Below are positions 26,380-63,069 of a DNA stretch of 64,000 bases, one piece after another. Below the pieces are notes generated by a model that ran no database searches, was not told where the DNA came from, and saw nothing but the letters and a program-made list of their open reading frames with translations. Source of the DNA: Candidatus Andersenbacteria bacterium RIFCSPHIGHO2_02_FULL_46_16 (GTDB taxonomy: Bacteria > Patescibacteriota > Andersenbacteria > UBA10190); contig MHHQ01000009.1 of NCBI GenBank assembly GCA_001817065.1, positions 16,211 through 80,210 of the forward strand. Direction: 5' to 3'. The position numbers and the translations under genes were made by a program. Within the stretch, counting starts at the first letter, position 1. Each line of letters opens with the position of its first letter.

Positions 26380-26477
26380 TGCAGTTTAGGATTGTTGCGA
26401 ATAAGGCACTTGTCGAGCAAGGTGTGATTTTTAATTAGTGTTTGACACTTGTTTATACCAGTAAATTTTACAATTTA

Positions 26478-39173: not shown

Positions 39174-39279
39174 GTTTAAAAACTTTATAAACCTTAACAA
39201 AACGATAACAAACTTAACACACAGATGGGATAAACTGATAAATATTTTCAATTTTTGAATTTACTTTTAATTTTATTTT

Positions 39280-45592: not shown

Positions 45593-45779
45593 GGATTTAG
45601 GCACCGCAACGAAATAATTTCTTAAGGTTTCGTTCAAGATGTGTCCAGCTATGGCTTTTTCGATTGAGCGAAATACGAGGCGTAGCCAAGCTACGGTGAG
45701 TATTTCGTGATTGAGAAAAAGTCATAGATGGGTGCAGATTGGGCGAAAGGTGGGAAATTATTTTGTGGCGGTGCCTTAG
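45593..45779 (+). mobile_element. MITE family 3 copy (diverged) between the metal-ABC ATPase and permease genes
   Basis: TIRs ggcaccgcaacgaaataatttc / gaaattattttgtggcggtgcc. Core (gagcgaaatacgaggcgtagccaagctacggtgag) homologous to the 41807 copy. Short TTAG repeats flank it. Confidence 0.5.
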
Positions 45780-46526: not shown

Positions 46527-46563
46527 AAAAAATAATTGTTATTCTTTATGTTACACTAAGGTG

Positions 46564-48297
46564 ATGGTGGATGATAATAATAAAAACGTATTAGTGGTTT
46601 TGGCGGAGCAGGGGCTGATAAAAGGCGAGAGTCAGATTAGTGACATCACGCAGCAATTAGATGGTGGTGCCACCCTTGACCAAGTATTAGTGGAAACAGA
46701 TTTGGTTGAGCCGGAGGCTTTGGCCAAAGTCAGAGCGCAAGTGGCGGGGCTGCCTTATGTGGATTTACGGGAGAAACAAATACCTAAGAACGTACTTGAT
46801 ATTATTCCGGAATCAACGGCACGCGGGCACATGATCATCGCTTATGAGCAGACTGATAACGTGGTACGAGTAGCTATGTCTGACCCAAGCGATCGACAAA
46901 TTGTCGAATTTATCCGAAAGAAGGTGGATCGACCAGTGGAGGTAGGTGTCGCATCGGCGGGGGCGGTGAGGAACACATTAGGTAATTATCAGGAGAGTCT
47001 CGAGGCGGAATTGGATGATGTGGTAAGTAAGGAACTAAAATTGGTAAATGAAATAGTGAATGATTTAGGCAAGGCAGCGGAAGACCTACCAATCGTCAGG
47101 ATTACTCAAGCAATTTTAAAACATGCCATAGTGGAGGGAGCGTCAGATATTCACATTGAGCCAACAGATAAGGACGTCATTATCAGATACCGGGTGGACG
47201 GCATTTTACACGATATGTTGGTATTACCCCGGGCAGTTTTAGCTGGATTAGTAGCGCGGATAAAAGTGTTGAGTAATCTGAAAATAGATGAACATCGGTT
47301 ACCGCAGGATGGTCGATTTATGATTGAGTCGGACGAATATAAAGTGGCTTTCCGTGTTTCCACCTTACCGGTGTTTGATGGTGAAAAGGTAGTAATGCGT
47401 TTGTTGGATGAGTCGGGTAAAAAGTTGAGTTTGGATGATATCGGTATTAGACCGGCCGCTTTAGAACTGATGCGACGGATTATAAAACGTCCACATGGCA
47501 TGGTGTTAGTAACTGGCCCAACTGGATCTGGTAAAACAACCACGTTGTACGCGGCCATGAAAGAAGTTAATACGGCGGATGTTAATATCAGCACTATAGA
47601 AGATCCGGTGGAATACCGAATGCCGCGGATAAATCAAACACAGGTTAAACCGCAGATTGGCCTAACTTTTGCTAATGGATTAAGAGCGCTGGTTAGGCAA
47701 GATCCTGACGTTATTATGGTCGGCGAGATTAGAGATGAAGAGACAGCTTCCTTGGCGATCAATGCTGCCTTAACCGGACATTTGGTTCTGACTACTTTGC
47801 ATACCAACAGTGCAGCTGGCGCGATACCGCGGATGCGAGACATGAAGGTTGAGGCTTTCTTGTTGGCCTCAACCGTAAATTTGATAATGGCACAACGGTT
47901 AGTGCGGAAATTGTGCGTGAAGTGTCGCAAGGAGCGAAAGCTAGACGCGCAGGTTATTGGAGAAATAAAGAAGGAGTTTAATAGTGAAGAAATTTTCAAA
48001 ACCTTAGTAAGGGAAAAAGTAGTGAAAGAGGGCTCAGGCTGGAAGGATGTTGTAATTTACCAGGCAGTGGGATGTAAGAGGTGCCACGATGGATATAAAG
48101 GCCGTATAGGGATTTATGAAACTATGGAGATAACACCGGAGATACAGAAGATGATTAAGCCAAGCGTAACAGCAGAACAAATAGAACAAGCGGCCAGAGA
48201 AAATGATGGCATGGTAAGTATGTTAGAAGATGGGATAATTAAAACGGTGGAAGGTACTACTACGCTGGAAGAGGTGCTTAGGGTAGCGCGAGAGTAG
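46564..48297 (+). CDS. pilB: Type IV pilus assembly ATPase PilB (GspE family)
   Basis: GspE N-terminal domain, Walker A GPTGSGKTTT, Asp box, His box and a C-terminal tetracysteine motif (CVKC...CKRC). Start set at ATG 46564 with an SD (aaggtg), to avoid overlap with the convergent ZnuC-like gene. Confidence 0.85.
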   Translation: MVDDNNKNVLVVLAEQGLIKGESQISDITQQLDGGATLDQVLVETDLVEPEALAKVRAQVAGLPYVDLREKQIPKNVLDIIPESTARGHMIIAYEQTDNVVRVAMSDPSDRQIVEFIRKKVDRPVEVGVASAGAVRNTLGNYQESLEAELDDVVSKELKLVNEIVNDLGKAAEDLPIVRITQAILKHAIVEGASDIHIEPTDKDVIIRYRVDGILHDMLVLPRAVLAGLVARIKVLSNLKIDEHRLPQDGRFMIESDEYKVAFRVSTLPVFDGEKVVMRLLDESGKKLSLDDIGIRPAALELMRRIIKRPHGMVLVTGPTGSGKTTTLYAAMKEVNTADVNISTIEDPVEYRMPRINQTQVKPQIGLTFANGLRALVRQDPDVIMVGEIRDEETASLAINAALTGHLVLTTLHTNSAAGAIPRMRDMKVEAFLLASTVNLIMAQRLVRKLCVKCRKERKLDAQVIGEIKKEFNSEEIFKTLVREKVVKEGSGWKDVVIYQAVGCKRCHDGYKGRIGIYETMEITPEIQKMIKPSVTAEQIEQAARENDGMVSMLEDGIIKTVEGTTTLEEVLRVARE

Positions 48298-48403: not shown

Positions 48404-49621
48404 ATGCCAATATATTCTTTCGAAGGACGGCGAGAAAAAACCGGTGAGGTAATAAGGGGCTTACGTGAAGCGCAGTCTCATGCATTACTGGGTCAAGATC
48501 TTCTAACGGAAGGCGTATTGTTGACGCGCTACACACAAAAAGTCCAACGCTTGCCTGGTGCAACGTTGTATTCAATGATTTTTAATCGTGTGCCGGTAAT
48601 CGAGCGAGTGCTTTTTTCGCGCTATTTTTCTCTGATGTTGCGGGCTGGTATGGATGTTAAGCGGTCACTGCAAGCCCTGCAGCAACAGACGCGCAGTAAA
48701 CCCCTGAAAATGGCTTTAGAGAGTGTTTATCATGATATTGAACGAGGTAGAACGTTAGCGGAAAGTATGCAGGTATTTCCGGCGGCATTTCCTCCGATGT
48801 TTATAAGTTTTATTGAGGTAGGTGAAACAACGGGGCGATTACAAGAGTCTTTAGAAGTATTGGCGAGTCAATTGCAGAAGGAATATGAGCTGCGAAGAGC
48901 GGTTAAGGGAGGGTTGATGTACCCGGCAGTGATTATTTTAGCTTTAATCGCAGTGGCCATTGCCATGATGTTTTTCGTTGTGCCAAAACTAGTGGAAGTG
49001 TTTGAAGGTTTTAATGTGCAGTTACCAATAGCAACGCGGATATTGATATTTGCCAGCGATATTTTTCAAAACTATTGGATGTGGATATTTATAGGTGTTT
49101 TTGTGTTGTTGGTAGGTGCTTGGGGTTTGATGCAGGTAAAATCGGTTTATGCAGTGGTAAATGAAGGACTATTACATTTGCCTATCTTTGGTGGAATTAT
49201 TCAAAAAGTTAACTTGGGCAGGTTCGCGCGAAATTTAAGTTCCCTCTTACAGAGTGGAGTGTCCTTTATTAGGGCGCTGGAGATATTAGGTCAAAATACG
49301 CCACATCCCAGTTATGCTCGCGTCTTCTCTGCAGCGCGAGAGCATGTCAGGCAGGGTAAAGAATTGAGCAGCTTTTTGGCTGATTTTCAACGACTGTTTC
49401 CACCGATTGTAATTAACGTGATTAAAGTGGGAGAGGAAACAGGAGCGCTAGACCAGGTGTTGGCTGAGACTGCTTTGTTTTATGAGAGTGAAGTTGACCA
49501 AACTATGAAGAATCTGACGTCTATCATGGAGCCAATATTAATGGTGGCTGTCGGATTGGCGGTTGGTGCATTAGCGGTGTCGGTAATCTCGCCAATCTAT
49601 GACTTGGTTAATGTTGTTTGA
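48404..49621 (+). CDS. pilC: Type IV pilus inner-membrane platform protein PilC (GspF family)
   Basis: Two GspF repeats and three TM helices. 405 aa. Confidence 0.85.
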   Translation: MPIYSFEGRREKTGEVIRGLREAQSHALLGQDLLTEGVLLTRYTQKVQRLPGATLYSMIFNRVPVIERVLFSRYFSLMLRAGMDVKRSLQALQQQTRSKPLKMALESVYHDIERGRTLAESMQVFPAAFPPMFISFIEVGETTGRLQESLEVLASQLQKEYELRRAVKGGLMYPAVIILALIAVAIAMMFFVVPKLVEVFEGFNVQLPIATRILIFASDIFQNYWMWIFIGVFVLLVGAWGLMQVKSVYAVVNEGLLHLPIFGGIIQKVNLGRFARNLSSLLQSGVSFIRALEILGQNTPHPSYARVFSAAREHVRQGKELSSFLADFQRLFPPIVINVIKVGEETGALDQVLAETALFYESEVDQTMKNLTSIMEPILMVAVGLAVGALAVSVISPIYDLVNVV

Positions 49622-51206
49622 TAAGAGGCAAAGCGAGCGTATTAATCCAGTTTGGCGACAATTCTTGTTTAGTGACGCAAGGGATAATGGTGTAGTTAGC
49701 AAAAGACCGAAGAGGAAAGTGGCTTCGTCCGGCTTTACGATTATTGAGGTGCTGGTGGCAACTTTTGTGATAGGGACTGCAATTGTAGGATTGTTTGGAT
49801 TGTTTGCGTTGGGACTGCGATTAGCTGGAGAAAGCGAGAATAGACTAATAGCTATTGCCTTGGCTAATGAAAAGATGGAGTTAATCAGAAATCTGCCCTA
49901 CGTGGATGTCGGAACGGCTGGTGGAATTCCAGCCGGAACTATAGTGCAGGAGGAGTCGATGGTGCGAAATAACGTTAATTATCTGGTTAAAACAGATATT
50001 CGATATGTGGATGATCCTTATGATGGGGTAGCTAGTGGTGGAGGAACAGGCGGATGTGTTGCTGTAGCGCATACACCGCCAGGGCAATCGACAAATTGCA
50101 ATGACTTGTGTGTTAACAGCTCAGCGGTGAATGCGCATTTAATGCATGGTGATGTGATGGGTAATTGTGATGGTACATACAGCGGACCGGATGTACTAAA
50201 TACCGATTATAAACAGGTAAGAGTAGAGGTCTCTTGGCCTAGTCCGAATGAACCACGGCCGATTTTACTCATCACGAAAGTGGCGCCGAATGGCGTGGAG
50301 GGCGGCGAATTGTTTGGGACATTAGATTTTCTGGTCATTAATAGCCAAGGCTTGGGAGTAACAGCGGCGAATGTCAGTTTAATTAATAGTGAAGTGGATC
50401 CGGCGGTAAACTATGCAACGCAGACCAATAGTGAGGGACGGGTAGTAGTACCGGGGCTACCGGAAGGCGCGCAAAATTATAAATTGATGGTCAGTAAATC
50501 AGACCATACCACAGAGCAGACGTTTGATGTCTTGTCCGACTTTATACCTGACCCGGACCATACGCATTTATCCATGCTAATTGGGGAAGTCACACAAAAA
50601 ACTTTCGTGATTGATCTGGCCAGCTCGTTGCAGATCACTTTTGAAGAGGGTGGGGATAGTGTGGAAAATTATTGCGAGGGAGCGCCACCTCAACCGTTAG
50701 CAGCGATTGATTATAGTTTGCGAGGAACTAAAACGATTGGGATGGATGACGTTGGTGATCCAGTATATGTGTACGATTATGCCGGTGCGTCGGACGCAAA
50801 CGGGCAAAGTAATCATGAAAATTTGGTATGGGATACTTATGAATTAGATCTAGTAGATGGAGTTGTGTGCGATATTAAGGAAACAAGTTTGATCAGGCCA
50901 GTAACTATTAATCCTGGGGAAGATTTAGCCATGACGGTTAAATTAGTGAAGCATACGGAGGTTTCTTTGCACGTAACGGTGGTTGATACGGCGGGTTTGG
51001 CAGTGGACAACGCCACGGTACGCTTGATAGGAGATGGTGCGGATGAAACACTCGGAACCGGACCGTGGGGTCAAATATTATTTGCTGATTTGCCGGCTAA
51101 TGACCAGTTCGTTTTAATAGTGCAAGCGCCTGGTTATGCGGAATGGCAGGATAATGTTGATGTGGAAGGTACTTCATTGGTACAAGTGGTCATGAGCAGT
51201 CTTTAA
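49599..51206 (+). CDS. Prepilin-type (PilV-like) protein with large C-terminal carboxypeptidase-regulatory-like beta-sandwich domains
   Basis: Class III signal ...SSG|FTIIEVLVATFVIGTAIVGLFG, with an alternative GTG start at 49719 that gives a 5-aa leader with GAGGA SD. PilV-like helix. Two CarboxypepD_reg-like repeats (GxxVxxDxxGxxVxxA...PGxYxLxVxAPGY). Confidence 0.7.
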   Translation: MTWLMLFDKRQSERINPVWRQFLFSDARDNGVVSKRPKRKVASSGFTIIEVLVATFVIGTAIVGLFGLFALGLRLAGESENRLIAIALANEKMELIRNLPYVDVGTAGGIPAGTIVQEESMVRNNVNYLVKTDIRYVDDPYDGVASGGGTGGCVAVAHTPPGQSTNCNDLCVNSSAVNAHLMHGDVMGNCDGTYSGPDVLNTDYKQVRVEVSWPSPNEPRPILLITKVAPNGVEGGELFGTLDFLVINSQGLGVTAANVSLINSEVDPAVNYATQTNSEGRVVVPGLPEGAQNYKLMVSKSDHTTEQTFDVLSDFIPDPDHTHLSMLIGEVTQKTFVIDLASSLQITFEEGGDSVENYCEGAPPQPLAAIDYSLRGTKTIGMDDVGDPVYVYDYAGASDANGQSNHENLVWDTYELDLVDGVVCDIKETSLIRPVTINPGEDLAMTVKLVKHTEVSLHVTVVDTAGLAVDNATVRLIGDGADETLGTGPWGQILFADLPANDQFVLIVQAPGYAEWQDNVDVEGTSLVQVVMSSL

Positions 51207-51228: not shown

Positions 51229-51876
51229 ATGGAGCGTGGCATAGGGCAACAGGGGCAAAGTAGGCAAAGGGGTCTGACAATAATGGAAATATTAGTGGTG
51301 GTATCTATCAGCTCGATAGTACTAATGGCACTACTACGTTTTTTAGTGGCCGGTTATCCTTTGTCAAAGACAATGGTGTTGCAGCAGCGCTCAACAGAAA
51401 CGGCCAGGGTTAATTTGAAACGGATAGTGAAAAGTTTACGCGAGGCTCGCCATTCTGATACTGGGGCGTATCCGTTGGTAGCAACCGAGCCGCAAAGGAT
51501 TGTTTATTATGCTAATGTGGATAGCGATCCGGCGACAGAAAAAGTTCGCTTGGAATTGTCGGGTAGCGACTTGGTCCGGGGCGTAACTAAGCCGACTGGA
51601 GACCCATTAATATATGACCAAAACAATGAGGTGACAGCGGTGATTATCGCTACGGTCAGGAATGGGACAGAGAAAGTATTTAGTTATTACACTGGAGAGT
51701 TCCCGGTGGATACAGGCGAGTTAACGCCAACGGATTTAACTGAGGTTAAATATATTGCATTCAGTTTACTTATTGATGCCGATCCGGCGGTTGAGCCACC
51801 CGCAATTCAGGTAAAGTCACAAGTACAACTGCGTAATTTGAAGACAAATTTAGGTCAAGTGGTGGAGGCGCCGTAA
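51229..51876 (+). CDS. Minor pilin-like prepilin-type protein
   Basis: QRG|LTIMEILVVVSISSIVLMALL N-terminal methylation-type helix. 215 aa. Confidence 0.6.
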   Translation: MERGIGQQGQSRQRGLTIMEILVVVSISSIVLMALLRFLVAGYPLSKTMVLQQRSTETARVNLKRIVKSLREARHSDTGAYPLVATEPQRIVYYANVDSDPATEKVRLELSGSDLVRGVTKPTGDPLIYDQNNEVTAVIIATVRNGTEKVFSYYTGEFPVDTGELTPTDLTEVKYIAFSLLIDADPAVEPPAIQVKSQVQLRNLKTNLGQVVEAP

Positions 51877-51988: not shown

Positions 51989-54343
51989 ATGGGGATGATT
52001 AAAAGACAAGCCGGTCAATCGTTAGTGGAAGTATTAGTGGCGGCATTTATTTTGGGCATATTGGCTGTAGCGCTGGCGGGCGTCTCAACTCTGGGAACGA
52101 AAACGGCGGGGGTCAGCGAGCAAAGAACGGTGTCGCAAGCAATAGCTAACAAAAAAGAGGAGATCCTCAAGTTAACACCTTATTTAGATGTTGGTTATGT
52201 AGGGGGGGGAATACCGGACGGTATTTTTGCTGCCAGTGAAATGGTGAGCATGAATAACCAATCCTATGAAGTAAAAATGGAAATTACGATGATTGATGAT
52301 CCGGCGAATGGCTGCCTGGATGCTGGTGGTACTTGCGATGGCAGCACATTAGATGAAGATACGGCGGATTATAAAAGGGTAGTGATTAGTATTAAATATC
52401 CCTCATCTAATAATGCGACAGATGAGGTTAAAGTCACCGTTCTGAGTATGCCTGGCCAAGCGGAAGATTTATTGAATATGGTGGCGTGTGATTCGACTGA
52501 TACGTCGGGATCTTGCGGAGCCGGGAAGATCTGTTGTGACGAAAGATGTTTGCCCAGGTGCGAGCCTGGCTCTTGTCCGTCGGGCTACACGTGCGCAGCA
52601 GATGGATGTGGATGTGAAGTGGAAAGCTGTCCGACCTGTGGCATGGCGTCTTGTTTCGATGACTTTGAGTGCGCTGCCACTAACCAGCAATGTAAAAATG
52701 GTAGTTGTGTATATAAATGCGTTGATGATGGTGATTGCGGGGGAGAGACTTGCGTTTATGGCATCTGTCAATCTTTTTGTATCAACAATGGCGAATGCAA
52801 TGATGACCAGTTTTGCCAAGACGGAGTATGTCATATGAGCACTTGCCTTGATAATTTCGATTGCCGAGTAGGTTATAGTTGTGTTGATTTTCAATGTCAA
52901 CCGACCGACTGCGTCGATGCCGGTTATTGCCAGTCTAATTTCGAGTGCGTCGAGAATACCTGTATGCCGGCCGCATGTTCGACTGGAACTTGTCCGGGCA
53001 GTTGGGAATGTGTGTTTGGCAAATGCCAGCCGCCGCAGTGTACGGCTGCGCAATTGTGTAATGGACGATCTTGCGTGGAAAGCAAATGCCAGCCGCCATC
53101 CTGTGAAAACCATGAACAATGTGGCGGAATAGCTGTTTGTTTAGGCGGGGTCTGTTCAAGCCCACCGGCATGCGGAGCGGGTTGTCCGGTATCACTATCA
53201 TGTGTGTATGGCCAGTGTTATAAACCCAATATGAGCGTGACGCCATTGATTGTTTCCGAAGAGTGTCCGGCACCGCTCGCTTTTCCATGCCTGCCGGCGA
53301 TGGGTGAGATTACGGTGAATTGGCTGCCGGTTGAAGGCCAAAATTATTGTGAGCCAGCGGTAACAATTGGCTCTTGTACGACGGGCGCTGATCCGGCAGC
53401 CCAATGGAGTGATACGGATGGAGATGGAATTACGAATTGCGGAGCGGTTGGGACTACACCAGCGATAAATGCTTGTACACCAATAAATCCCATTGAATGC
53501 GGTGCTAGTTGTCCGGGGTGCCCGAGTTGTCCCGCTAACGAGTCTTGTATAGAAGGCCAGTGTATGCCGGAGCAACCTTGCCCGGTTGGGTATGCTAACC
53601 ACCCGACTATCGATGGAGCATGCGCAGAGGAAGTGCCGGTGGTACCGCCCATTACGTGTCCGCCGGAAATATGTTCTGGCGCAGCTTATTGTTCGGCTGG
53701 CCAGTGTAAGACCGCCGGTTGTTTAACTGACGATCAGTGCGGAGCTCATGGTAAATATTTATGCCGTAATAATATTTGTATACCGTCACTGGCGAGAGAC
53801 TGCGAGTATTGCATTCCAGCAGAACGAATCCAGTATTGTTATCAGGAAGATTGTTCGACTTGCGGCCAGGGGCCTGGTTCGGCATGCACAGATACACTGG
53901 GTAAGCCGAGCGTAGTAGTATGGGCACAGGATAGTGAAATAGGTTGCAACTATTTGAATTGCGAATACGCACCAACTGTCTGCGGTGACGGTATTTTACA
54001 GCCGGGAGAACAATGTGACGCTCCCGATGATAGCAATTGTCCCGGAGAGTGTGGGCCGCAAGGTGGCTCGATTGAACCAGCTTGCCAGTGCCCGGCACCG
54101 GTATGTGGTAACGGAATACTTGAGCTAGATGAGGAGTGTGATGCACCGCAAGATGCCGCTTGTCCAGACCAATGCGGATCTGCTGGAGCGCCGCCATGTA
54201 TCTGTCCGACACAGGCGGCGCCACCTTTATGTGGAAATGGCTTAATAGATACTATGTTTGGGGAAATGTGTGATTGGTCAGTGGGTGATGCTACGTGTCC
54301 AGGAGGTTATTGCCTTGATATATGTGAGTGCGCGTATCCGTAA
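51989..54343 (+). CDS. Giant cysteine-rich prepilin-type protein (PilV-like N-terminus plus ~35 tandem Cys-rich repeats incl. Myxococcus-type disulfide repeats)
   Basis: AG|QSLVEVLVAAFILGILAVALAG prepilin helix. ~110 Cys in 784 aa in CxxxxC-x4-6-C repeats. C-terminal CGDGILQPGEQCDAPDD..., CGNGILELDEECDAPQD..., CGNGLIDTMFGEMCD repeats match the Myxococcus cysteine-rich repeat (TIGR02232-like). Confidence 0.7.
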   Translation: MGMIKRQAGQSLVEVLVAAFILGILAVALAGVSTLGTKTAGVSEQRTVSQAIANKKEEILKLTPYLDVGYVGGGIPDGIFAASEMVSMNNQSYEVKMEITMIDDPANGCLDAGGTCDGSTLDEDTADYKRVVISIKYPSSNNATDEVKVTVLSMPGQAEDLLNMVACDSTDTSGSCGAGKICCDERCLPRCEPGSCPSGYTCAADGCGCEVESCPTCGMASCFDDFECAATNQQCKNGSCVYKCVDDGDCGGETCVYGICQSFCINNGECNDDQFCQDGVCHMSTCLDNFDCRVGYSCVDFQCQPTDCVDAGYCQSNFECVENTCMPAACSTGTCPGSWECVFGKCQPPQCTAAQLCNGRSCVESKCQPPSCENHEQCGGIAVCLGGVCSSPPACGAGCPVSLSCVYGQCYKPNMSVTPLIVSEECPAPLAFPCLPAMGEITVNWLPVEGQNYCEPAVTIGSCTTGADPAAQWSDTDGDGITNCGAVGTTPAINACTPINPIECGASCPGCPSCPANESCIEGQCMPEQPCPVGYANHPTIDGACAEEVPVVPPITCPPEICSGAAYCSAGQCKTAGCLTDDQCGAHGKYLCRNNICIPSLARDCEYCIPAERIQYCYQEDCSTCGQGPGSACTDTLGKPSVVVWAQDSEIGCNYLNCEYAPTVCGDGILQPGEQCDAPDDSNCPGECGPQGGSIEPACQCPAPVCGNGILELDEECDAPQDAACPDQCGSAGAPPCICPTQAAPPLCGNGLIDTMFGEMCDWSVGDATCPGGYCLDICECAYP

Positions 54344-54848: not shown

Positions 54849-56486
54849 ATGGGAAATCGCCAGCGAGGGAAATTCTGGAAGCTGATCAAGCAGATAGTCA
54901 AAGGGGCTGAGGATGGGGTAACCGTTGTGGAGTTATTGGTATTTATTGGCATCGGATCGGTTCTGATTGCGACGCTAGCGGTGATCGTATCTGGAACGTC
55001 TCGCGTCTCGCGGCAGCAGATGGAGCAAGGAGTAATCACAGAAAAGGCGCGGGTACAATTAGAAAGAATAAGTGATGAAATCCGGAATGCCCAGTATGTG
55101 GACTGTAACTTGGATAGCGATACGGCTGATGTCAATGAATACTGGTTGTACGGCGCGAGTGATTGGGAAATAATTGTTTTAAGCAATGTGGATGATGATG
55201 TGGAAGCAGAACGGGTGAGATATTTTGTGCAGGCTAGTACTACCGGTGAAACAAAGAAGTTAAAGAGGGCGGTGACGCAGCCAGGTGCATCATTGTGCGA
55301 TTTTTCACCTAATTCTGAAAATATCACAACAGTCCTAGATGGTTTAGTAAATGTGACACTCGACCCTGACAGGCCGCTTTTTCAGTATTTCATGAGTGGC
55401 CAGGATGCAGCCCGTTTAACCACGCCGGTGATACGATTATCGAGCGTGCTTAGGGTGAGGTTGCATTTAGTAATTGACGAGGATATAAACACCGATCCGG
55501 CGCTGGTGGAGGTGGTGACTGATGTGGTACCGCGCGGCGTGGAGGATCCGGGAGCATGTGTGATCAATAGGGTTGATTTTTATCGATACCATATGACCGA
55601 ATCGTTTGCCGATGCCGCTTTTATTTCATGTCAGTCTCATTGCCTAGGGATAGCAGTGCTACCGCCTGGTGAATGTTGTCCCTGGTCAACGGCTTTTTAT
55701 CTGGATTCAGCTACTGGCTGGGTGTGGTCCACGTGCCAGTGCGCTGATACCTATTTGCCGCCGGATATAATTCCAGAAAATGTTAATCTTAACCAATATA
55801 CGTCTTCTGTGAGAGGGTGTTTGGACGGAACCAGATGCGCGGGGCTAAAGGGCGAGGCGGTCTGTGAGGCAGGCTGCCTAGACACACCAGGAGAATGCGT
55901 GTGTGTTTGTCCGGCCGGATTACCGCCGACGACGGCGTGCAATGACGGGGTTGATAATGATGGGGACGGGACGGCAGATTGTTCGGGTTGTGGCGGTGTG
56001 GCGGGTTTATTAGATGATCCAGGATGTTCGGGTTACGGCGATAGCTCAGAGTGGGGCACCACCCAATGTGATGACGGTATCGATAATGACGGTTGTAACG
56101 GAACTGACTTTAAGATTAACGGGACCGGAGATATTGACTGTGTTGATCCGGCGGATGACGACGAAGGCCCTTGTTTGAGTGGTTCTCCGTCAGGTTGCGT
56201 GCCAACACAGATTCCGAGCATACCACAATGCAGTGATGAATTGGATAATGACTGCGCAGGTGATGGGATTGATTATGCCGGTGGGGCGGGGGACTTGCAG
56301 TGCCAAAATATTAACGATAATAATGAATGGTCAATCAACAAGCAGTGCAATGATGGGTTTGATAATGATGCAGACGGGACAGTTGATTGTTGGTGGCTAT
56401 TTTGTGCTAGATTAAGACCTGATGATAAGTCCGCGGACACTGATTGCACCGGTCCAAATGACGACAGTGAGTTTTCGGATGTATAG
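54849..56486 (+). CDS. Prepilin-type protein with C-terminal MopE/thrombospondin-type-3-like Asp-rich Cys repeats
   Basis: AEDG|VTVVELLVFIGIGSVLIATLAV prepilin helix. The C-terminal 200 aa contain CNDGVDNDGDGTADC, QCDDGIDNDGCNGTD, CSDELDNDCAGDGID and QCNDGFDNDADGTVDC repeats (putative Ca/metal-binding, C.DG.DNDCDG..D). Confidence 0.65.
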   Translation: MGNRQRGKFWKLIKQIVKGAEDGVTVVELLVFIGIGSVLIATLAVIVSGTSRVSRQQMEQGVITEKARVQLERISDEIRNAQYVDCNLDSDTADVNEYWLYGASDWEIIVLSNVDDDVEAERVRYFVQASTTGETKKLKRAVTQPGASLCDFSPNSENITTVLDGLVNVTLDPDRPLFQYFMSGQDAARLTTPVIRLSSVLRVRLHLVIDEDINTDPALVEVVTDVVPRGVEDPGACVINRVDFYRYHMTESFADAAFISCQSHCLGIAVLPPGECCPWSTAFYLDSATGWVWSTCQCADTYLPPDIIPENVNLNQYTSSVRGCLDGTRCAGLKGEAVCEAGCLDTPGECVCVCPAGLPPTTACNDGVDNDGDGTADCSGCGGVAGLLDDPGCSGYGDSSEWGTTQCDDGIDNDGCNGTDFKINGTGDIDCVDPADDDEGPCLSGSPSGCVPTQIPSIPQCSDELDNDCAGDGIDYAGGAGDLQCQNINDNNEWSINKQCNDGFDNDADGTVDCWWLFCARLRPDDKSADTDCTGPNDDSEFSDV

Positions 56487-56638
56487 TGGTATCGCCGTCT
56501 CCTACTATTCCGATACCGACTCCCTAGTCTTCGACTACCTTATTTTTTCTCTGTGCTTGACGATGTACGGTTCAATGATTCGATAATATAAGGATGGGAA
56601 AAATAACGGTCCGGCAGAAGAGTGATTGATGATAGCGA

Positions 56639-56864
56639 CTATAGACATCACATCATAAAATGTCACTGCAGAATAAGCGGGTGGCGGCGCGGGGGTCCCC
56701 CACCGAGCGCCAGCAGCCCTGAGCCTGCCTACCGGTAGGCAGGCTTGTCGAAGGGCGATGCCGTCGGGTGGGGGGAGCAGCGCCGACAGGCCTGCGGGCC
56801 GAAGCCATAGCGAAGGCTGGACCCGTTTCTTGTCTGGTGGCTTTTCATGATGTGACACCTATAG
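56639..56864. mobile_element. MITE family 2, copy 2 (TIR-flanked GC-rich core)
   Basis: TIRs ctatagacatcacatcataaaatgtcac / gtggcttttcatgatgtgacacctatag. The core shares aagcgggtggcggcgcgggggtcccccaccgagcgcc and gccgtcgggtggggg.gcagcgccgacagg with copy 1. Confidence 0.5.
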
Positions 56865-56971
56865 TTAGGTGGTTATATAATTACCAGATCACGCCTTAAC
56901 GATGGTACTAAAGGGATATTATAAAGAAAGACATATTTGCCGAAAGTTAGGAAAAAGGCTAAACAAAATAA

Positions 56972-58510
56972 ATGGGGCACCTAGCGCAACTTTATGAATG
57001 GCGAAACTGGTCAAGCAAGACTTGGCTAGTTTTAATTTTGCTGACAGCCAGCGTGGTTACCCATTTTATCTGGTTTGGTTATCCTACGCAGGTAGTGTTT
57101 GATGAGGTGCATTTTGGTAAGTTTGTGACGGCATATTGCTGCACCCACCAACGTTTTTTTGACATTCATCCCCCCCACGCCAAGTTGTTAATCGCTGGTA
57201 CGGCATATGCCTTAGGCTATCGGGGCGGGGTAAGTTTTGAGAATATAGGTCAAGACTTTGGCAGTGTGAGTACGTGGCCACTGCGCGTTTTTCCGGCAAT
57301 AACTGGAGTGCTGTTACCGCTGGTTATATATGCATTACTTAGGCAATTAAAGGCGTCAGCCGCAGCGGCGTTTTTTGGCGGCATGCTGGTTGTGTTGGAT
57401 AATGCGTTAACGGTGCAGACAAGGATGATCGCTTTAGACGGTTTATTACTAGTGTCAACCTTTGGAGCGCTGGCGGTATATTTAGCAGCGAGAAAAGAGA
57501 TGCAGCAGTACAGAGAGTCCCCAGATCAGAATGGAGGACAAAGCAACTGGTGGAGTAGGTTGACTGGCGGGATCAGGATGCGACGAGAGGGGTGGATGTT
57601 TGGTCTAGCGGGGGGTCTGGCTGGTTTAGCGGTGGGTACCAAGTTTACAGGGCTCACAGCCGGTGGATTGTTAGTGCTATTGTTGGGTGCGTGGCTGGTG
57701 CAGATTAGATCATGGGGGGAAATTAAGCGGTGGAGGACAGCGGTGGTGTTTATAGTACTGGCGGCGATCGTGGTGTATGGGTTGGGCTGGATGATACATT
57801 TTATGATTTTAACGGAAGCAGGGGACGGGGACTTGTGGCGCAAACCACAATGGGAACAACCGATCATGGCTAGTTTTTGGCGGGAGACAAAAGCTATACA
57901 CAAATTAATGTATGACGCTAATAGTGGATTAAAAGCGGAACACCATGATGCCAGCCATTGGTGGTCTTGGCCTTTAGTACAGACCCCGGTATTTTATTGG
58001 CAATTGAGTCAGAACGAAGGAGGGGTAAGTCGATCGGGATCGATCTACTTCCTGCCAAATCCGATTTTGTGGTGGGGTACATCCGCCGTGTTTGCGGTAA
58101 TACTTTTATCGATGCTGATAACGGGGGTAAACAATTTAGTCAGATGGCATGGCGGGTGGCAAAAGAGAGTCGGGCGAATGAGGCAGCAGTGGCAACAGTC
58201 GTTCTTGAAACAAGCATGGTTACCGTTAATGGGCTATGCAGCATCATATATACCATTAATGAAAGTGACGAGAGTGTTATTTCTTTATCACTATCTGACA
58301 CCATGGTTGTTTTCACTATTGGTGGTGGTGTTGTGGTTAGAACGAATAGGCTGGATTGCACGGGAGGAGATAGTTGATCAGCCAAAGAGGTATTGGTTGG
58401 TACTAGCCATTATCCTTGGTGCCTTTATATTTTTTAGTCCACTGACATACGGATTTCTATTGTCGGAAGTGAGCCGGAGCTGGCTATTTTGGTTTAAGAC
58501 ATGGTTGTAA
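56972..58510 (+). CDS. PMT-family (GT39-like, dolichyl-phosphate-mannose-protein mannosyltransferase-type) integral-membrane glycosyltransferase
   Basis: VVFDEVHFGKF...FFDIHPPHAKLL, the loop-1 DE motif and flanking residues characteristic of protein O-mannosyltransferases. About 11 TM helices, 512 aa. Confidence 0.75.
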   Translation: MGHLAQLYEWRNWSSKTWLVLILLTASVVTHFIWFGYPTQVVFDEVHFGKFVTAYCCTHQRFFDIHPPHAKLLIAGTAYALGYRGGVSFENIGQDFGSVSTWPLRVFPAITGVLLPLVIYALLRQLKASAAAAFFGGMLVVLDNALTVQTRMIALDGLLLVSTFGALAVYLAARKEMQQYRESPDQNGGQSNWWSRLTGGIRMRREGWMFGLAGGLAGLAVGTKFTGLTAGGLLVLLLGAWLVQIRSWGEIKRWRTAVVFIVLAAIVVYGLGWMIHFMILTEAGDGDLWRKPQWEQPIMASFWRETKAIHKLMYDANSGLKAEHHDASHWWSWPLVQTPVFYWQLSQNEGGVSRSGSIYFLPNPILWWGTSAVFAVILLSMLITGVNNLVRWHGGWQKRVGRMRQQWQQSFLKQAWLPLMGYAASYIPLMKVTRVLFLYHYLTPWLFSLLVVVLWLERIGWIAREEIVDQPKRYWLVLAIILGAFIFFSPLTYGFLLSEVSRSWLFWFKTWL

Positions 58511-58782
58511 AGATGAAACATACTCAAAACACCCTCCTACGCTAAAGCTACGGATGGGCAGGCAAAGCATAAAACTCAGACAAAGCACAGGTTATTATAA
58601 ACTTTCCAAACCATAACAAATCGGTAACAAACTTAACAAACAACAGACACGAAAATTTCAAGGTCCATCCTGCCTAAAAGCTTCTGACGGGATCCCCTCA
58701 GGACAATTATTAAATAATGACCACTGACCTTGCCTTCCCGTAAGCCGTGGGGGTAAGGTAGGCGATGTGATATTATTAAGGG

Positions 58783-60171
58783 ATGAATAAGAGGAGGACA
58801 GACGGGTGGAGCAAGGGTGGCGGCGTGTTGGTGATGACACTGGTGTTTGTGAGCATGTTCTTAGTGATTTTTATTGGTATCTCTGGCATGGTGAGCCGGA
58901 CTTATCATGAAACGGTTCTCCAGGCGCATGACGAATTGGCTTTTCAGGTGGCCGAGGCGGGACTAAATTATGCACGATGGAGATTGGCTCATAATGGTGA
59001 TGATTTAGCAGCGGCGGAGGGCGTGTTAACAGATCAGTTAGCGGGTGATTTGGGTGAGTATGAATTGACGTTTGCGCAATCGCAGCCAGGCAATTCGGTA
59101 ATCAGAATAACTTCAGTAGGAACCACCTTAAGCCAACCGATGAGGCAAGTGACCTTGAATGCATTATACGGAAAGCCTTCCTTGGCGCGTTATGCTTCCA
59201 TTACTAACAATGATGTTTGGTACGGAGGAACCATTTCTGGTCCGGTTCATGCTAATGGGGGCATTAGAATGGACGGACAGTCAGATAGTTTAATGACCTC
59301 AGCTAAAGAAACCTATGCCTGCCAGCCTTACCATGGATGTTCATCGCCTTATCAAACTAAGCCGGGTATTTGGGGGACGGGTGAAATACAAGAACTGTGG
59401 GAATGGCCAGTAACCAATGTGGACTACGCTTCGATTACCCTAGATTTATTGGATATGCGTGCGGCCGCTGATGAAACCGATACGCACTATGGGTCATCCG
59501 GTGGCTTTGGTTATCAGATAGAGTTTGCCAGTAATAATACTTACTCCATTTACAAGGTGACGAAGAGAGGATCAAATATTTGGTCCTGGACTCATGAAAC
59601 GGATTGGCAATATACGTCGCATGATGTGGGTAGTAAAACATTAATTGAAACAAGGGCAGTGCCGTCAGGTGGAGTGATTTATTTAGACGATAGGACTTGG
59701 GTAAAAGGAGATATTCGTGATCGGGTGACGGTGGCGGCTGGTGTTTCTCCGGCAACCCCGTCTACCAATGTTGATATCATAGTCAATGGAAATATCAGTT
59801 ATGGCGATGTGCATGATGGGACACGGGCTTTTGCTGCTGTAGCGCAACGGCATATTCAAATTCCTTGGTCTGGTGTACCTGATAATATGCGTATGGATGG
59901 AGCATTTGTTGCCCAGAACGGATCGTTTCATCGGCGATATTATCCGAATTGCTGTGGGGCACAAGCCCATCGTCTAAAGACAAGCTTAACGCGGTTTGGC
60001 ATGGTGGCAAGTAACGGGGTGCCGGCCACGGCGTGGCTCGAGAACGGCAATATAGTTAGCGGTTTTAGATCGGGCCAGGCTACTTATGATGCCAACCTAC
60101 TTTATGGTCCACCACCTTATTTTCCGGCCAACAGCCAATATGAATTAATCTCTTGGGAGGAGGACCAGTAG
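58783..60171 (+). CDS. PilX-N-domain pilus-associated protein with large C-terminal domain
   Basis: GGVLVMTLVFVSMFLVIFIGISGMVSRTY...AFQVAEAGLNYARWRL matches the PilX N-terminal domain. 462 aa. Confidence 0.6.
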   Translation: MNKRRTDGWSKGGGVLVMTLVFVSMFLVIFIGISGMVSRTYHETVLQAHDELAFQVAEAGLNYARWRLAHNGDDLAAAEGVLTDQLAGDLGEYELTFAQSQPGNSVIRITSVGTTLSQPMRQVTLNALYGKPSLARYASITNNDVWYGGTISGPVHANGGIRMDGQSDSLMTSAKETYACQPYHGCSSPYQTKPGIWGTGEIQELWEWPVTNVDYASITLDLLDMRAAADETDTHYGSSGGFGYQIEFASNNTYSIYKVTKRGSNIWSWTHETDWQYTSHDVGSKTLIETRAVPSGGVIYLDDRTWVKGDIRDRVTVAAGVSPATPSTNVDIIVNGNISYGDVHDGTRAFAAVAQRHIQIPWSGVPDNMRMDGAFVAQNGSFHRRYYPNCCGAQAHRLKTSLTRFGMVASNGVPATAWLENGNIVSGFRSGQATYDANLLYGPPPYFPANSQYELISWEEDQ

Positions 60172-60193
60172 GCGGTAAGACATTAAATTAGGT

Positions 60194-60376
60194 AAGTCAC
60201 CATCCGTAAATAACTTAACCATTTCTCGCCCACTATGCGCCAATCTACGACTTTTCTTCAATCGCGAACCACTCACCGTAGCTTGGCTACGGCTCCTGGT
60301 TCGCTCAATTGGAAAAGCCGTATCTCGACGCATATTGAACGAGATCTGGCCAAGTTATTTTTGGATGGCGCCTAAG
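60194..60376 (-). mobile_element. MITE family 3 copy (inverted orientation)
   Basis: Reverse complement of the 41815-41987 element: gtcaccatccgtaaataacttaacc ... ggccaagttatttttggatggcgcc. Confidence 0.5.
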
Positions 60377-60514
60377 GAAAAAAGTGAATTATGCGACCCA
60401 ATTTTGAAGCGAGGAGGTGGGTTTGGGATAATTCAGAAAAATGGATGAACGAGGTATAGTTAAGAGTGAGTTTAATTATTTTCTTATTATGGGAAGGGAT
60501 GAAAGGAATAAATT

Positions 60515-61543
60515 ATGATAGGCATTGATATCTCAGACGGGTCAATCAAATTAGTACAACGATCAAAGACGGAAGGGGATATGTTGCAGTCTTTTTGTTG
60601 GCGGGTGATTGAAGAAGGAGTGATAGAACGAGGTGTTATTGTTGAACCTAAGAAGCTTCGCCAAGCGATTGTGCAAACTTTTGAACAATGCCATCTTGAA
60701 GTAAATACAGATGATGCGGTGGTGGCATCAATTCCAGAGACACAGTCTTTTCTGCGTGTCATTGAGGTGCCGGATATGACGGACGAAGAAACGGACGAAG
60801 GAGTGCGCTGGGAAGTAGCCCAGCATATCCCCTTTGGCTTGGAAAATGTTTATATTGACTGGCAACCCATTCCCCGTGGTCACCAGGCGGCGAAGGGGAT
60901 TAGAGAGGTGCTGGTTGGCGCTGCCCAGAAAAAGGTAGTTGATCCGTTGTTGGCAGTATTGAAGGATCTGGACTTGGATGTGGCGGCGCTGGAGTTGGAA
61001 AGCCAGGCAATTGTTCGTGCTTTAATATCACCGGAACTGCAGAACAAACAAGGTATGCTGATAGTCGATTTAGGTGGCAGTGCGACGAATGTCATTATTC
61101 ATGATCATGGAGCGATGAGATTTACGGCTAGTTTGCAGCACGGGGTAAGAAGAATAGCTGAAACATTGTCGCATAAAGACAAGGAAGAATTACTAGTGCC
61201 CACCACCACAGATATACCGACAGAATCGGCTAATCGGATCGCGGAAGCAATGCGACCAGCACAAGAGGAATTAGTGATGGAGATTAAAGGAATTGTAGAA
61301 TTTTATAACGGAATCGATGACAAACATGAGGTGACGGAAATATTATTGACTGGCGGTGGATCTAACTACCCGGGTCTGGATCGAGTGGTCGCCAAGTATT
61401 TTGATGATGTGCATGTACAGCGAGGCAATCCCTGGGTGAATTTGTTACCGCACAACCAGATGAGCAAGGCGCCTATGTCACTCAAAGAGTCGGTGCATTT
61501 TTCCACGGCGATTGGTTTGGCATTAAGAAAGATAGACGCATGA
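60515..61543 (+). CDS. pilM: Type IV pilus assembly protein PilM (actin-like ATPase fold)
   Basis: MIGIDISDGSIKLV start and DLGGSATNV in the second actin-fold half. 342 aa, followed by pilN/pilO-like genes. Confidence 0.8.
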   Translation: MIGIDISDGSIKLVQRSKTEGDMLQSFCWRVIEEGVIERGVIVEPKKLRQAIVQTFEQCHLEVNTDDAVVASIPETQSFLRVIEVPDMTDEETDEGVRWEVAQHIPFGLENVYIDWQPIPRGHQAAKGIREVLVGAAQKKVVDPLLAVLKDLDLDVAALELESQAIVRALISPELQNKQGMLIVDLGGSATNVIIHDHGAMRFTASLQHGVRRIAETLSHKDKEELLVPTTTDIPTESANRIAEAMRPAQEELVMEIKGIVEFYNGIDDKHEVTEILLTGGGSNYPGLDRVVAKYFDDVHVQRGNPWVNLLPHNQMSKAPMSLKESVHFSTAIGLALRKIDA

Positions 61544-62073
61544 AGGACGACATAAATCTCTTACCAAAACAGCTTGTAGTAGGTCGAGAAAGACGAGCAT
61601 ATTTGTTCGGATTTGGTCGTTTGCTCCAGCGAGTAGCCTTTTTACTAGCGGCTATTATTTTGGGAGAGGCGATAATTTATGGCGCTTATTATTATTTCGA
61701 TTATACGTTAGAAAAGAGCTGGAACTCGCAGGTACAAAGTATGAGCGCTACTTTGGAAACACAGAATATGAATGATTTATTGACGTTGGTGGACACTACA
61801 CGGAAACAGTTTGTGAGCTGGTCTTTGTATAGTGAAGAGGTGCTAAATAGTGCGCCGAGAGAAATCACTATTAGTAGATTGGAAGTAAAGGAAAATCTAG
61901 GTGTTTTAGAGATTGATGGTTATACCAGCCGGCGGTCGTCTGTGTTGGAGTATAAAAATATTTTAGCTGGGTTGAGCTGGGTCGACCAGGTGGAAGCACC
62001 GCTGCAGAATTATGCAATTGGGCCTGATTCTGGTTTTTCGCTTAGCTTAGTTGTTGATGAAGGAAAACAATGA
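61540..62073 (+). CDS. pilN: PilN-like pilus assembly protein
   Basis: N-terminal INLLPK motif, single TM, ~175 aa. Start overlaps the pilM stop. Confidence 0.6.
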   Translation: MKDDINLLPKQLVVGRERRAYLFGFGRLLQRVAFLLAAIILGEAIIYGAYYYFDYTLEKSWNSQVQSMSATLETQNMNDLLTLVDTTRKQFVSWSLYSEEVLNSAPREITISRLEVKENLGVLEIDGYTSRRSSVLEYKNILAGLSWVDQVEAPLQNYAIGPDSGFSLSLVVDEGKQ

Positions 62074-62714
62074 AATCATTGCGCTTGAAAAAACTAATTA
62101 TTACCCGGGCGATTGGGATCTTCATTGTAATTTTGTTGATAGCGCTGGTAATATATGCGGCTAAATTAGTGCAGGGGGTGAGGATTCGATTAATGGAGCG
62201 ACAAATAAAAATGGAAGAGAGTCTGGATGAGGCAGTGCATCGGGCAGTGGTGGCGGATACGTTAGTGCAATATGAAAAAGAGATGAAGCGCGTGAGAGGT
62301 ATTGTTCCCTGGCGTGATGAAATTGGACAGGTGGTCGAGACAGTAGATGGCGAAGCAAAACGTTGGGACGTCGCTGTACTGGTGCCGAAAATTAGCGAAG
62401 AGCCAATATACGATGAGAGTGGCATGGTTATTGCGCAAACTGGGCCGACTCGCTTGATTCGTTTAACGGTTGAAGCAGCTGGTGGTCCATGGGCATTGAT
62501 TAATTTGTTACATAGCCTGGAAAGCTTGCCTTACTTAATGAGCCCGGTGTCATATGTGCTTGATAACGAAGCAGATGAGATAAATGCGTTTGGTGCAACA
62601 GCTTTGGCACCAGCTTTACCACTCTCCAAAGACACAGTGAAAACAATGCCGGTGCAGCTGGCTATATTGAAAGCAGATTTTTTACTAACCATCAGAGTTG
62701 AGGAGGGTAAATAA
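62070..62714 (+). CDS. PilO-like pilus assembly protein
   Basis: Single N-terminal TM, coiled-coil region and periplasmic domain. Position after pilN and an overlapping start. Confidence 0.45.
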   Translation: MKSLRLKKLIITRAIGIFIVILLIALVIYAAKLVQGVRIRLMERQIKMEESLDEAVHRAVVADTLVQYEKEMKRVRGIVPWRDEIGQVVETVDGEAKRWDVAVLVPKISEEPIYDESGMVIAQTGPTRLIRLTVEAAGGPWALINLLHSLESLPYLMSPVSYVLDNEADEINAFGATALAPALPLSKDTVKTMPVQLAILKADFLLTIRVEEGK

Positions 62715-63069
62715 AATGATTAATATTAACTGGCAAAATCTACGTAGTGCAATCGAAAAGAAAAACTGGTATCTAATAGGTAGCCGTTTGCGGGTATTGA
62801 TACACCAAATGCCGCGAGCCTTGTTTATTAGGCATAGCCACATTATAGACATAATAGCAGTGGGGATTGGGTTACTGGTGGCGATATATTTAGTGCTGGT
62901 ACTGGTGTTTAGGCCACCGGTGGCGGTTAACACGCAACCAGTGCAGACTGGGGATTTATCCGTTGACGTGTTAAGAAACTTGAATAACTGGGTGGCTGAC
63001 CGTCAGAGAGAGAAAGAACGGCGAATAGAGTTGAACAGAATTGACATCTTTAAGTTACCAAGTAATTAA
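62698..63069 (+). CDS. Small single-TM protein in the pilus locus (PilP-like position), hypothetical
   Basis: 123 aa (an alternative start at 62716 gives MININWQ...). One TM, basic C-terminal tail. Confidence 0.3.
   Translation: MRRVNKMININWQNLRSAIEKKNWYLIGSRLRVLIHQMPRALFIRHSHIIDIIAVGIGLLVAIYLVLVLVFRPPVAVNTQPVQTGDLSVDVLRNLNNWVADRQREKERRIELNRIDIFKLPSN

Follow-up and report, generated by a model that had tools for sequence, protein, structure and literature searches.

A 64,000-nucleotide stretch of the Candidatus Andersenbacteria bacterium RIFCSPHIGHO2_02_FULL_46_16 genome (contig MHHQ01000009.1; hereafter the window) encodes a glycosyltransferase of the protein O-mannosyltransferase (PMT; GT39) family inside a type IV pilus operon, and we found that this arrangement is retained across one lineage of the candidate phyla radiation (CPR). 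Type IV pili are the best-supported means of host attachment and DNA uptake in CPR bacteria (Patescibacteria), and a PMT family built into the pilus operon of one such lineage suggests that pilus-associated surface proteins are glycosylated. Glycosylation of CPR pilins has so far been a bioinformatic prediction with no enzyme assigned (PMC11623550). Bacterial GT39 enzymes are reported from more than 3,800 genomes, but work on them has been confined to Actinobacteria, and what those bacteria gain from them is unclear (PMC11727336). Our literature search returned no paper linking a mannosyltransferase to Patescibacteria pili and no account of the pilus linkage of PMT. A GT39 gene fixed inside a pilus operon offers a concrete enzyme-substrate hypothesis to those who study CPR pili and to those who study bacterial GT39 enzymes.

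The gene is a 512-amino-acid (aa) open reading frame (ORF) with an ATG start, whose end coordinate includes the stop codon:

56972–58510, + strand: MIR-less PMT homologue (GT39; PMT and PMT_4TMC domains) with about 11 predicted transmembrane helices and a DE motif (D44-E45) in extracytoplasmic loop 1, assigned from Pfam, alignment, AlphaFold2 (AF2) modeling and Foldseek

A first-pass annotation of the window had named this ORF a PMT from its signature, VVFDEVHFGKFVTAYCCTHQRFFDIHPPHAKLL, which is present in the product; the protein carries the motif VVFDEVHFGKF...FFDIHPPHAKLL. Both Pfam domains of the family are matched well above their cut-offs: PF02366 (PMT) over residues 23–280 with 108.6 bits (cut-off 22.7) and PF16192 (PMT_4TMC) over residues 302–511 with 117.1 bits (cut-off 32.4), the latter across the full length of the model. 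The E values of the two matches, 5e-31 and 1e-33, lie far beyond chance. The Pfam scan of the protein gave no match to PF13231 (PMT_2, ArnT-like) at E≤0.01, to a MIR domain or to a TPR domain, and it placed no Wzy_C or O-antigen-ligase-type domain in the protein or the scanned neighbors; some homologues (P0006, P0065 and others) do match PF13231. Orthology with actinobacterial Pmt was ruled out: the protein reaches 27.1 bits with the NCBIfam equivalog NF058602, whose cut-off is 800. Judged by its sequence, the protein is best classified as a MIR-less bacterial GT39/PMT from an unstudied lineage, presumably active, that falls outside both the eukaryotic MIR-containing subfamilies and the actinobacterial Pmt orthologue group. 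An identical protein is present in metagenome-assembled genomes of Candidatus Andersenbacteria and the Parcubacteria group. Two database records call it "hypothetical protein," and another calls it "Dolichyl-phosphate-mannose-protein mannosyltransferase 4," so the family annotation is already public.

Structural comparison places the protein in the same family. The nearest solved structures by sequence are the eukaryotic Pmt4, Pmt1 and Pmt2 (E 2e-33 to 4e-22), and the alignment to Pmt4 runs in two stretches that skip its luminal MIR domain (chain residues ~330–533). An AF2 model built from 34 homologues has a mean predicted local distance difference test score (pLDDT) of 88 and a predicted TM-score of 0.90. 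It contains about 11 transmembrane helices and stops after the last of them (H472–493); the loop between helices 7 and 8 is 85 residues long (280–363) and forms only a beta-hairpin at the place where eukaryotic enzymes have MIR. In a Foldseek search against the PDB, the top seven hits were all Pmt4, Pmt1 or Pmt2 chains (TM-score 0.72–0.77, E 4e-20 to 2e-13), and the solved PMTs matched include ctPmt4, scPmt4 and scPmt1/2. Scores were 0.40–0.47 for OST, AglB and PglB, 0.45 for ArnT (E 2e-3) and 0.30–0.40 for Emb proteins. An ArnT/GT83 assignment was ruled out by hidden Markov model (HMM) and fold, given the missing PF13231 match and a rank of 20th for the ArnT structure 5f15.

The active site is likewise conserved. 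Residues F43, D44, E45, H47, H66, D156, K224, R434 and F437 are invariant in the 34 homologues, which span 42–100% identity. In a HMMER alignment, F43, D44, E45 and H47 correspond to ctPmt4 F83, D84, E85 and H87, D156 to D197, and F437 to F669; F83, D84, H87 and F669 of ctPmt4 contact the acceptor Thr. D156, H66, K224 and R434 were matched to S. coelicolor Pmt D233, H159, K302 and R510 by motif context alone. In that enzyme, H159, K302 and R510 position the phosphate of the donor and are required in vivo, and the DE motif is documented as functionally important in characterized PMTs. Across ctPmt4 and S. coelicolor Pmt, the matched residues bind the acceptor Thr, the metal or the donor phosphate, or are essential. 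The ORF exists exactly as the first-pass annotation gave it, and the assignment to GT39/PMT and not ArnT/GT83 is upheld by HMM, fold and conserved catalytic residues.

The PMT gene sits in a type IV pilus cluster that runs on one strand, with prepilin-type genes on both sides. On its upstream side are the genes for PilB, PilC and five proteins whose N termini are of prepilin type (535, 215, 784, 159 and 545 aa); downstream are a 462-aa protein with a PilX/ComGG-like N terminus (X462), then PilM, PilN and PilO. This is the context the first-pass annotation had described, between pilin-like genes and a PilX-like gene. The pilus genes are as follows; the interval between psp215 and X462 is called the variable slot, and L001 is an 85%-identical relative.

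46462–48297, + strand: PilB-type assembly ATPase (MshEN and T2SSE in orthologues); since orthologues have only 575–580 aa, the true start is probably internal to this ORF
48404–49621, + strand: PilC platform protein (T2SSF in orthologues)
49599–51206, + strand: psp535, a 535-aa PilV-like pseudopilin with a CarboxypepD_reg domain; conserved operon core
51229–51876, + strand: psp215, a 215-aa prepilin-type minor pilin; conserved core, abutting the X462 gene in PMT-lacking lineages
51989–54343, + strand: variable-slot prepilin-type protein of 784 aa, 12.5% cysteine; missing in L001
54344–54823, + strand: variable-slot protein of 159 aa with a ComGG/PilX-like N terminus; missing in L001
54849–56486, + strand: variable-slot prepilin-type protein of 545 aa with acidic double-disulfide repeats, directly 5' of the PMT gene; missing in L001
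58783–60171, + strand: X462, predicted ComZ-like large minor pilin of 462 aa with an N-terminal pilin helix and a beta-rich domain
60515–61543, + strand: PilM (PilM_2, 130.6 bits)
61540–62073, + strand: PilN-like bitopic protein; its second-set counterpart matches PF05137 weakly
62070–62714, + strand: PilO-like bitopic protein

The position of PMT within this cluster is retained among relatives. On long contigs that carry PMT homologues at 85%, 60%, 58%, 50%, 48% and 45% identity, the genes follow the same order of PilB, PilC, pseudopilins, PMT, X462 and PilM/N/O, and PMT occupies its slot in L001–L007; a gammaproteobacterial homologue at 44% identity occurs without that order. When one genome per species was scanned, 80 PMT loci were obtained, and PMT lies within a pilus cluster in about 30 of them, all labelled Andersenbacteria or generic CPR. 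In all, ~33 species-level genomes have the gene in this slot, with PMT identity reaching down to ~37%. Each Andersenbacteria genome among the kept loci has one PMT locus. For PMTs at 30–43% identity, no pilus genes were found within 10 kb in Proteobacteria, Bdellovibrionota, Nitrospirota, Acidobacteriota or most other Patescibacteria. In a neighbor-joining tree without support values, the pilus-embedded PMTs form one clade, separate from the clade of other Patescibacteria PMTs; they are nearer to proteobacterial-type sequences (40–43% identity) than to those of other Patescibacteria (31–34%). Across 29 loci of the pilus-embedded clade, PMT is on the same strand as its neighbors; the gap to the upstream gene has a median of 41 nt and that to the downstream gene a median of 71 nt, with five overlaps. 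Three loci (L028, L032 and L044) have a 4-nt start/stop overlap between PMT and an upstream gene with a prepilin signal.

Outside this clade, PMT and pilus genes adjoin independently in two loci, each organized differently. The PMT of L068, of Paceibacterota type and from the other clade, is 1.5 kb from psp215-like and X462-like genes and a pilin block, and in L086, from a non-Andersenbacteria member of the Patescibacteria, PMT directly precedes a short PilB-like ATPase and PilC (L086:7949-11491). A gene for a 681-aa polytopic membrane protein precedes PMT in L086, with a 3-nt gap.

Pilus loci were also chosen from the other side, by their X462 neighbor, in an independent collection (JGI metagenome contigs) in which more than 470 loci matched and 80 were kept (L090–L169). 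Where X462 is at least 52% identical, PMT is directly upstream in 11–12 of the 15 loci having any upstream sequence. The exceptions are L094, in which a (TP)n-linker protein is upstream and the flank is only 639 nt, and L097 and L104, near-identical contigs that share one split-locus arrangement. The 64 loci with X462 at 33–40% identity have the same PilB-PilC-psp535-psp215-X462-PilM order, with psp215 abutting X462, and PMT is present in 0 of 42–64 of these distant orthologous operons. PMT is therefore no general feature of these pili; it is a lineage-specific insertion into an older conserved operon, accessory and not a core pilus gene. Absence from orthologous pilus loci, which the first-pass annotation had counted against a pilus role, is accordingly found in distant loci and not within the clade, where the slot is retained.

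PMT was inserted at the operon's variable slot, between psp215 and X462, and it co-occurs there with additional pilin genes. More than 0.8 kb of extra coding DNA (2–6.6 kb) fills the slot in 12 of 19 loci with PMT versus 1 of 42 loci without it (p = 3e-7). The extra genes differ between close relatives: those of the window encode the 784-, 159- and 545-aa proteins, and L001 has none of these.

PMT also co-occurs with Pro/Ser/Thr linker tracts, the canonical acceptors of bacterial PMTs (PMC11727336). Plain Ser/Thr density was tried as an acceptor signature and rejected, the best 20-residue window having a median of 9 Ser/Thr in PMT-containing and 8 in PMT-lacking loci, with more residues scanned in the former; an explicit Pro/Ser/Thr-linker criterion was substituted. 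By this criterion, linker tracts occur in pilin-block proteins of 7/33 loci with PMT and 0/59 loci without it (p = 5e-4), L094 being additional. Within PMT-containing loci, 9 of 145 pilin-block proteins carry such a tract, as against 2 of the 468 remaining proteins (odds ratio 15, p = 7e-5), and in L031 the linker-bearing protein is encoded directly upstream of PMT. The linker-bearing pilins of L031, L099, L043 and L045 are candidate acceptors.

Clues to the donor come mainly from PMT homologues elsewhere. In 14–15 of ~47 loci without pilus genes, a GT2 gene sits directly beside PMT. Their best matches are PgfS and undecaprenyl-phosphate glycosyltransferases of the ArnC type (GtrB/ArnC/PgfS type), and one GT2 has a GtrA/DPMS transmembrane domain. 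The pairing in other lineages therefore indicates that the family follows the logic of a lipid-phosphate-sugar synthase plus a GT-C transferase (PMC11127046). About 8 kb downstream on the Andersenbacteria contig is a sugar-1-phosphate nucleotidylyltransferase, with an NDP-sugar epimerase/dehydratase nearby. The best match of the nucleotidylyltransferase, a mycobacterial mannose-1-phosphate guanylyltransferase, is sub-threshold (166 bits vs 440), and as pointers to a donor pathway the two genes are only hints.

The window also contains a nonulosonic-acid (sialic, pseudaminic or legionaminic-like) biosynthesis cluster at 18643–25086. It encodes a 627-aa NeuB-family synthase fused to a xylose-isomerase-like TIM barrel (NeuB_NnaB 319 bits, cut-off 400), a methyltransferase, an SDR and a PseF/NeuA-like cytidylyltransferase. 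This cluster would be a second, nucleotide-sugar-based surface-glycosylation route in the same genome.

We propose that PMT mediates extracytoplasmic O-glycosylation of pilus-associated proteins and that these are its physiologically relevant substrates, a reading whose chances we consider evenly balanced. The data above establish the family, fold, conserved active site, operon membership, clade-wide retention and lineage specificity of PMT, together with its co-occurrence with extra pilin genes and Pro/Ser/Thr linkers; from them we infer a catalytically active enzyme, a lipid-phosphate-sugar donor, a protein acceptor and pilus proteins as targets, and the sugar transferred may or may not be mannose. 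PMT would reside in the cytoplasmic membrane as a GT-C fold with its catalytic loop 1 (D44-E45) outside, receive a flipped polyprenyl-phosphate-monosaccharide and move a single sugar, with inversion, onto Ser/Thr hydroxyls at the outer face of the membrane. Pilins awaiting assembly are bitopic (N-in/C-out) and anchored by their N-terminal pilin helix, the substrate geometry favored by fungal Pmt4, which prefers membrane-anchored substrates. Co-transcription of PMT with minor-pilin genes would mean that enzyme and substrates are made together. For these two reasons, pilus-associated proteins would be the likeliest acceptors, above all the variable, large adhesin-like pilins of the same slot, with the ComZ-like tip pilin or an unlinked major pilin as further possibilities. 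In this scenario, PMT would have been inserted once into the older conserved pilus operon in the Andersenbacteria lineage and then kept.

More tentatively, PMT may be part of a dedicated Andersenbacteria pilus glycosylation module, in which a GT39 acquired once O-glycosylates a fast-changing cassette of large pilin adhesins at the tip and possibly the ComZ-like pilin. Such a module could tune host or surface recognition, or shield the pilus from phages and proteases. Outside Actinobacteria, its enzyme would be the first GT39 whose substrate class is defined, and it would be the first CPR pilus glycosylation enzyme. It would also be the third independent enzyme family recruited to pilin O-glycosylation, so that pilus glycosylation would have arisen at least three times with different enzyme families. 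If the proposal is false, PMT is still a clean case in which the variable slot of a conserved pilus operon has captured an accessory gene specific to one lineage.

Several observations weigh against pilus-associated proteins as the substrates. On the donor side, neither a GT2 polyprenyl-phosphate-sugar synthase (looked for by motif, homology and precomputed Pfam labels of called genes) nor a flippase was found in the window or within 10 kb of pilus-embedded PMTs. On the acceptor side, there is no Ser/Thr-rich or Pro/Ser/Thr tract in the window's pilin-like proteins (at most 7 Ser/Thr per 20 residues), and no small major pilin is encoded in the window, nor a major pilin within 10 kb in relatives. 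Here the PMT gene is also split from the upstream pilin gene by a 230-nt repeat with a promoter-like site, described below. Pilus operons of related lineages function without PMT, and 7 of 19 loci with PMT have no extra slot pilin gene, so variable pilins are not the sole reason for its retention. The loci with PMT form one clade, which makes the co-occurrence statistics phylogenetically non-independent, and conserved synteny in streamlined CPR genomes could be inertia. Finally, in the in-clade locus L035, PMT has no pilus genes in 10 kb of upstream or 0.8 kb of downstream sequence, and it lies directly 3' of a gene for a 164-aa membrane-anchored protein with a Ser/Thr/Pro-rich tract (L035:9424-11290), an arrangement that fits a wider substrate range.

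Some of these points are what would be expected of a general housekeeping O-glycosyltransferase for exported or membrane-anchored envelope proteins, whose place in the pilus slot reflects co-expression or inherited gene order. We regard this as a possible, if somewhat doubtful, explanation. Characterized bacterial PMTs are broad-spectrum enzymes that modify many secreted proteins (PMC11727336, PMC8698208). L035, where PMT is kept away from pilus genes beside a Ser/Thr/Pro-rich membrane protein, would suit such an enzyme, as would the lack of typical acceptor tracts in the window's pilins and the ability of related lineages to build the same pilus without PMT; a single PMT locus per Andersenbacteria genome among the kept loci is also as expected. 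However, PMT lies inside the minor-pilin block and not at the operon edge, sometimes with a start/stop overlap with a prepilin gene, and its slot has been kept while neighboring genes came and went. The 15-fold enrichment of Pro/Ser/Thr linkers in pilin-block proteins of PMT-containing loci, with none in PMT-lacking pilus loci, and the two cases in which a PMT of another clade independently adjoins pilus genes likewise argue for a pilus connection. The general and dedicated readings overlap, in that a general enzyme would also modify pilins with suitable tracts.

We consider it improbable that the acceptor is not a protein but a cell-wall polymer, lipid or lipoglycan, with a pilus context that is incidental or tied to passage of the pilus through the wall. 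GT-C enzymes of the same architecture do act on lipid A, arabinan or O-antigen (PMC11127046), and the PF13231 matches of some homologues (P0006, P0065 and others) are compatible with this. However, the residues that contact the acceptor Thr in ctPmt4 are identical and invariant here (F43, D44, H47 and F437 for F83, D84, H87 and F669). The fold (TM-score 0.72–0.77 to PMTs against 0.45 for ArnT and 0.30–0.40 for Emb) and the missing PF13231 match of the protein itself point the same way, as does the literature, in which the GT39 members studied so far act on proteins. It is highly improbable that PMT has lost its transferase activity and persists in the membrane as a structural part or a chaperone of the pilus apparatus: the only point in its favor is the constant operon position, whereas the catalytic and donor-binding residues are all invariant in the 34 homologues, homologues in other phyla are paired with lipid-phosphate-sugar synthases, and sister-lineage pilus operons work without PMT.

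Several known systems are comparable with PMT. The actinobacterial Pmt enzymes (M. tuberculosis Rv1002c, C. glutamicum Cg_1014 and S. coelicolor Pmt) are likewise MIR-less GT39 proteins with ~11 transmembrane helices, a loop-1 DE motif and conserved His/Lys/Arg around the donor phosphate, and the same chemistry is presumed. They typically modify Pro/Ser/Thr-rich linkers, and such linkers are present in pilin-block proteins of the PMT clade as well. They differ in being general enzymes with a known Ppm1 synthase that are not reported in pilus operons; the host here is a CPR bacterium. The eukaryotic PMT1, PMT2 and PMT4 enzymes (6p25, 9e61 and 9i5k) give the best matches in both sequence and fold; ctPmt4 has the identical loop-1 motif VVFDEVHFGKF and shares the residues for the acceptor Thr and the metal/phosphate. 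Unlike the protein described here, with its 85-residue beta-hairpin loop, they carry a luminal MIR beta-trefoil between helices 7 and 8, and their donor is dolichyl phosphate-linked, where here it would be a bacterial polyprenyl phosphate.

The closest functional analogue is TfpW, the pilin D-arabinofuranosyltransferase found in group IV strains of P. aeruginosa. It is a GT-C enzyme of 11 transmembrane helices that is encoded within the pilin gene cluster and modifies pilin Ser/Thr periplasmically from a lipid-linked D-Araf donor. TfpW belongs to an Emb-like family, with a DDX motif and a C-terminal periplasmic TPR domain (features by which its description sets it apart), and its gene directly follows the major pilin gene pilA, with a known donor pathway; PMT here is among minor pilins. 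PglL and TfpO (PilO) also glycosylate Ser/Thr of type IV pilins outside the cytoplasm, and tfpO adjoins pilA, but they form an unrelated family whose donor is undecaprenyl diphosphate and which transfers oligosaccharides assembled beforehand, not single sugars from polyprenyl monophosphate. Three-component GtrA/GtrB/Gtr* and Pgf-type systems resemble the PMT homologues of other phyla, which are paired with GtrB/PgfS/ArnC-like GT2s (PMC11127046); Gtr* enzymes modify O-antigen and not protein, and the GT2 partner is unlinked in the pilus-embedded PMT clade. The first-pass annotation had held that known pilin O-glycosylation systems belong to other families and that PMT may mark a different route. 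The former statement was incomplete, TfpW also being a GT-C enzyme beside a pilin gene. The latter is softened by the precedent of TfpW as a GT-C enzyme with a lipid-linked donor.

The downstream neighbor X462 belongs to a family represented at more than 470 metagenomic loci and by 934 database proteins at E≤1e-10, and many of its residues are invariant, as in VHANGGIRMDG and GPPPYFP. In JGI annotation it is in some cases named PilX, and none of 120 homologues carries a Pfam domain. A confident structure model built from database homologues (pLDDT 86) has a beta-rich body and, at the N terminus, a long helix. The one PDB entry that it matches significantly is Thermus thermophilus ComZ, near full length at E ~1e-10, with a low TM-score owing to domain orientation. 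ComZ is a beta-solenoid pilin argued to be at the pilus tip and to bind DNA (PMC6561018). On the strength of this model, X462 is predicted to be a ComZ-type large minor pilin, which makes the first-pass label "PilX-like" approximately right. It is conserved in CPR pilus operons of this type.

The long gaps flanking the PMT gene are filled by palindromic repeat elements. Two features lie directly upstream of it:

56639–56868: GC-rich palindromic repeat of ~230 nt, resembling a miniature inverted-repeat transposable element (MITE), between the 545-aa gene and the PMT gene
56852–56881, + strand: promoter-like GTGACA-18 nt-TATAAT at the repeat's right end, oriented toward the start of the PMT gene (11/12 matches; consensus match only)

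The 230-nt repeat has terminal inverted repeats (CTATAG..GTGACA) and folds into a single long hairpin (-123.6 kcal/mol, z -6.2), and both of its ends carry promoter-like hexamers facing outward. A shorter copy of 173 nt with internal deletions is at 23738–23910. Upstream of PMT, the repeat occurs only in this organism and is missing there in relatives, and the gap it fills is the largest upstream gap in the clade. A structured RNA or riboswitch in the flanking gaps was considered and rejected, since Rfam gave no match to the 230-nt repeat, at gathering score for the whole window or at E≤1 within 56480–60520.

A second palindromic repeat family of ~185 nt occurs at 41804–41990, 45597–45764, 60195–60381 and 1–38 (hairpin -77 kcal/mol, z -8.8). 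The copies at 41804 and 60195 (187 nt) are 98% identical, inverted and bracket 18 kb in which PilB through the ComZ-like gene are included. Recombination between them could invert the intervening segment. As bounds of an invertible or mobile pilus segment, these repeats were considered and set aside: relatives keep the gene order, and the element, being a palindrome with other copies at 45597 and where the window begins, is probably a dispersed MITE-like one. Other families of short repeats between genes (D2, D3, D7 and D9) are at 6079–6116, 7208–7397 and 26477–26691, and at 7063–7110, 39176–39223 and 58595–58642, with one copy in the gap just 3' of the PMT gene.

In L035, PMT is flanked by counterparts of window positions 10300–14885 (Lgt and a UvrD-like helicase) and by the genes that usually follow the pilus cluster (CTP_transf_like and PrsW), which suggests a large rearrangement or a relocation of the pilus genes. 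In the window, the PilM-PilN-PilO-small-protein set is tandem-duplicated (60515–63069 and onward; L089:8446-13629): the first set is followed by another PilM_2 gene and by genes for three small bitopic proteins. The duplication is kept in relatives L001, L003 and L007. Cysteine content is extremely high in the variable-slot proteins of 784 and 545 aa (12.5% and 5.9%, respectively). Genes for a VKOR-like protein and two DsbA-like thioredoxins are present in the window as well (4858–6037, 7558–8307), which fits heavy extracytoplasmic disulfide formation alongside the Cys-rich pilin-like proteins. The 64 kb contain no tRNA genes. GC skew is strong, positive and uniform (0.17–0.33 in all 2-kb bins of positions 1–64000), and the + strand carries most of the long ORFs, including the entire pilus cluster.

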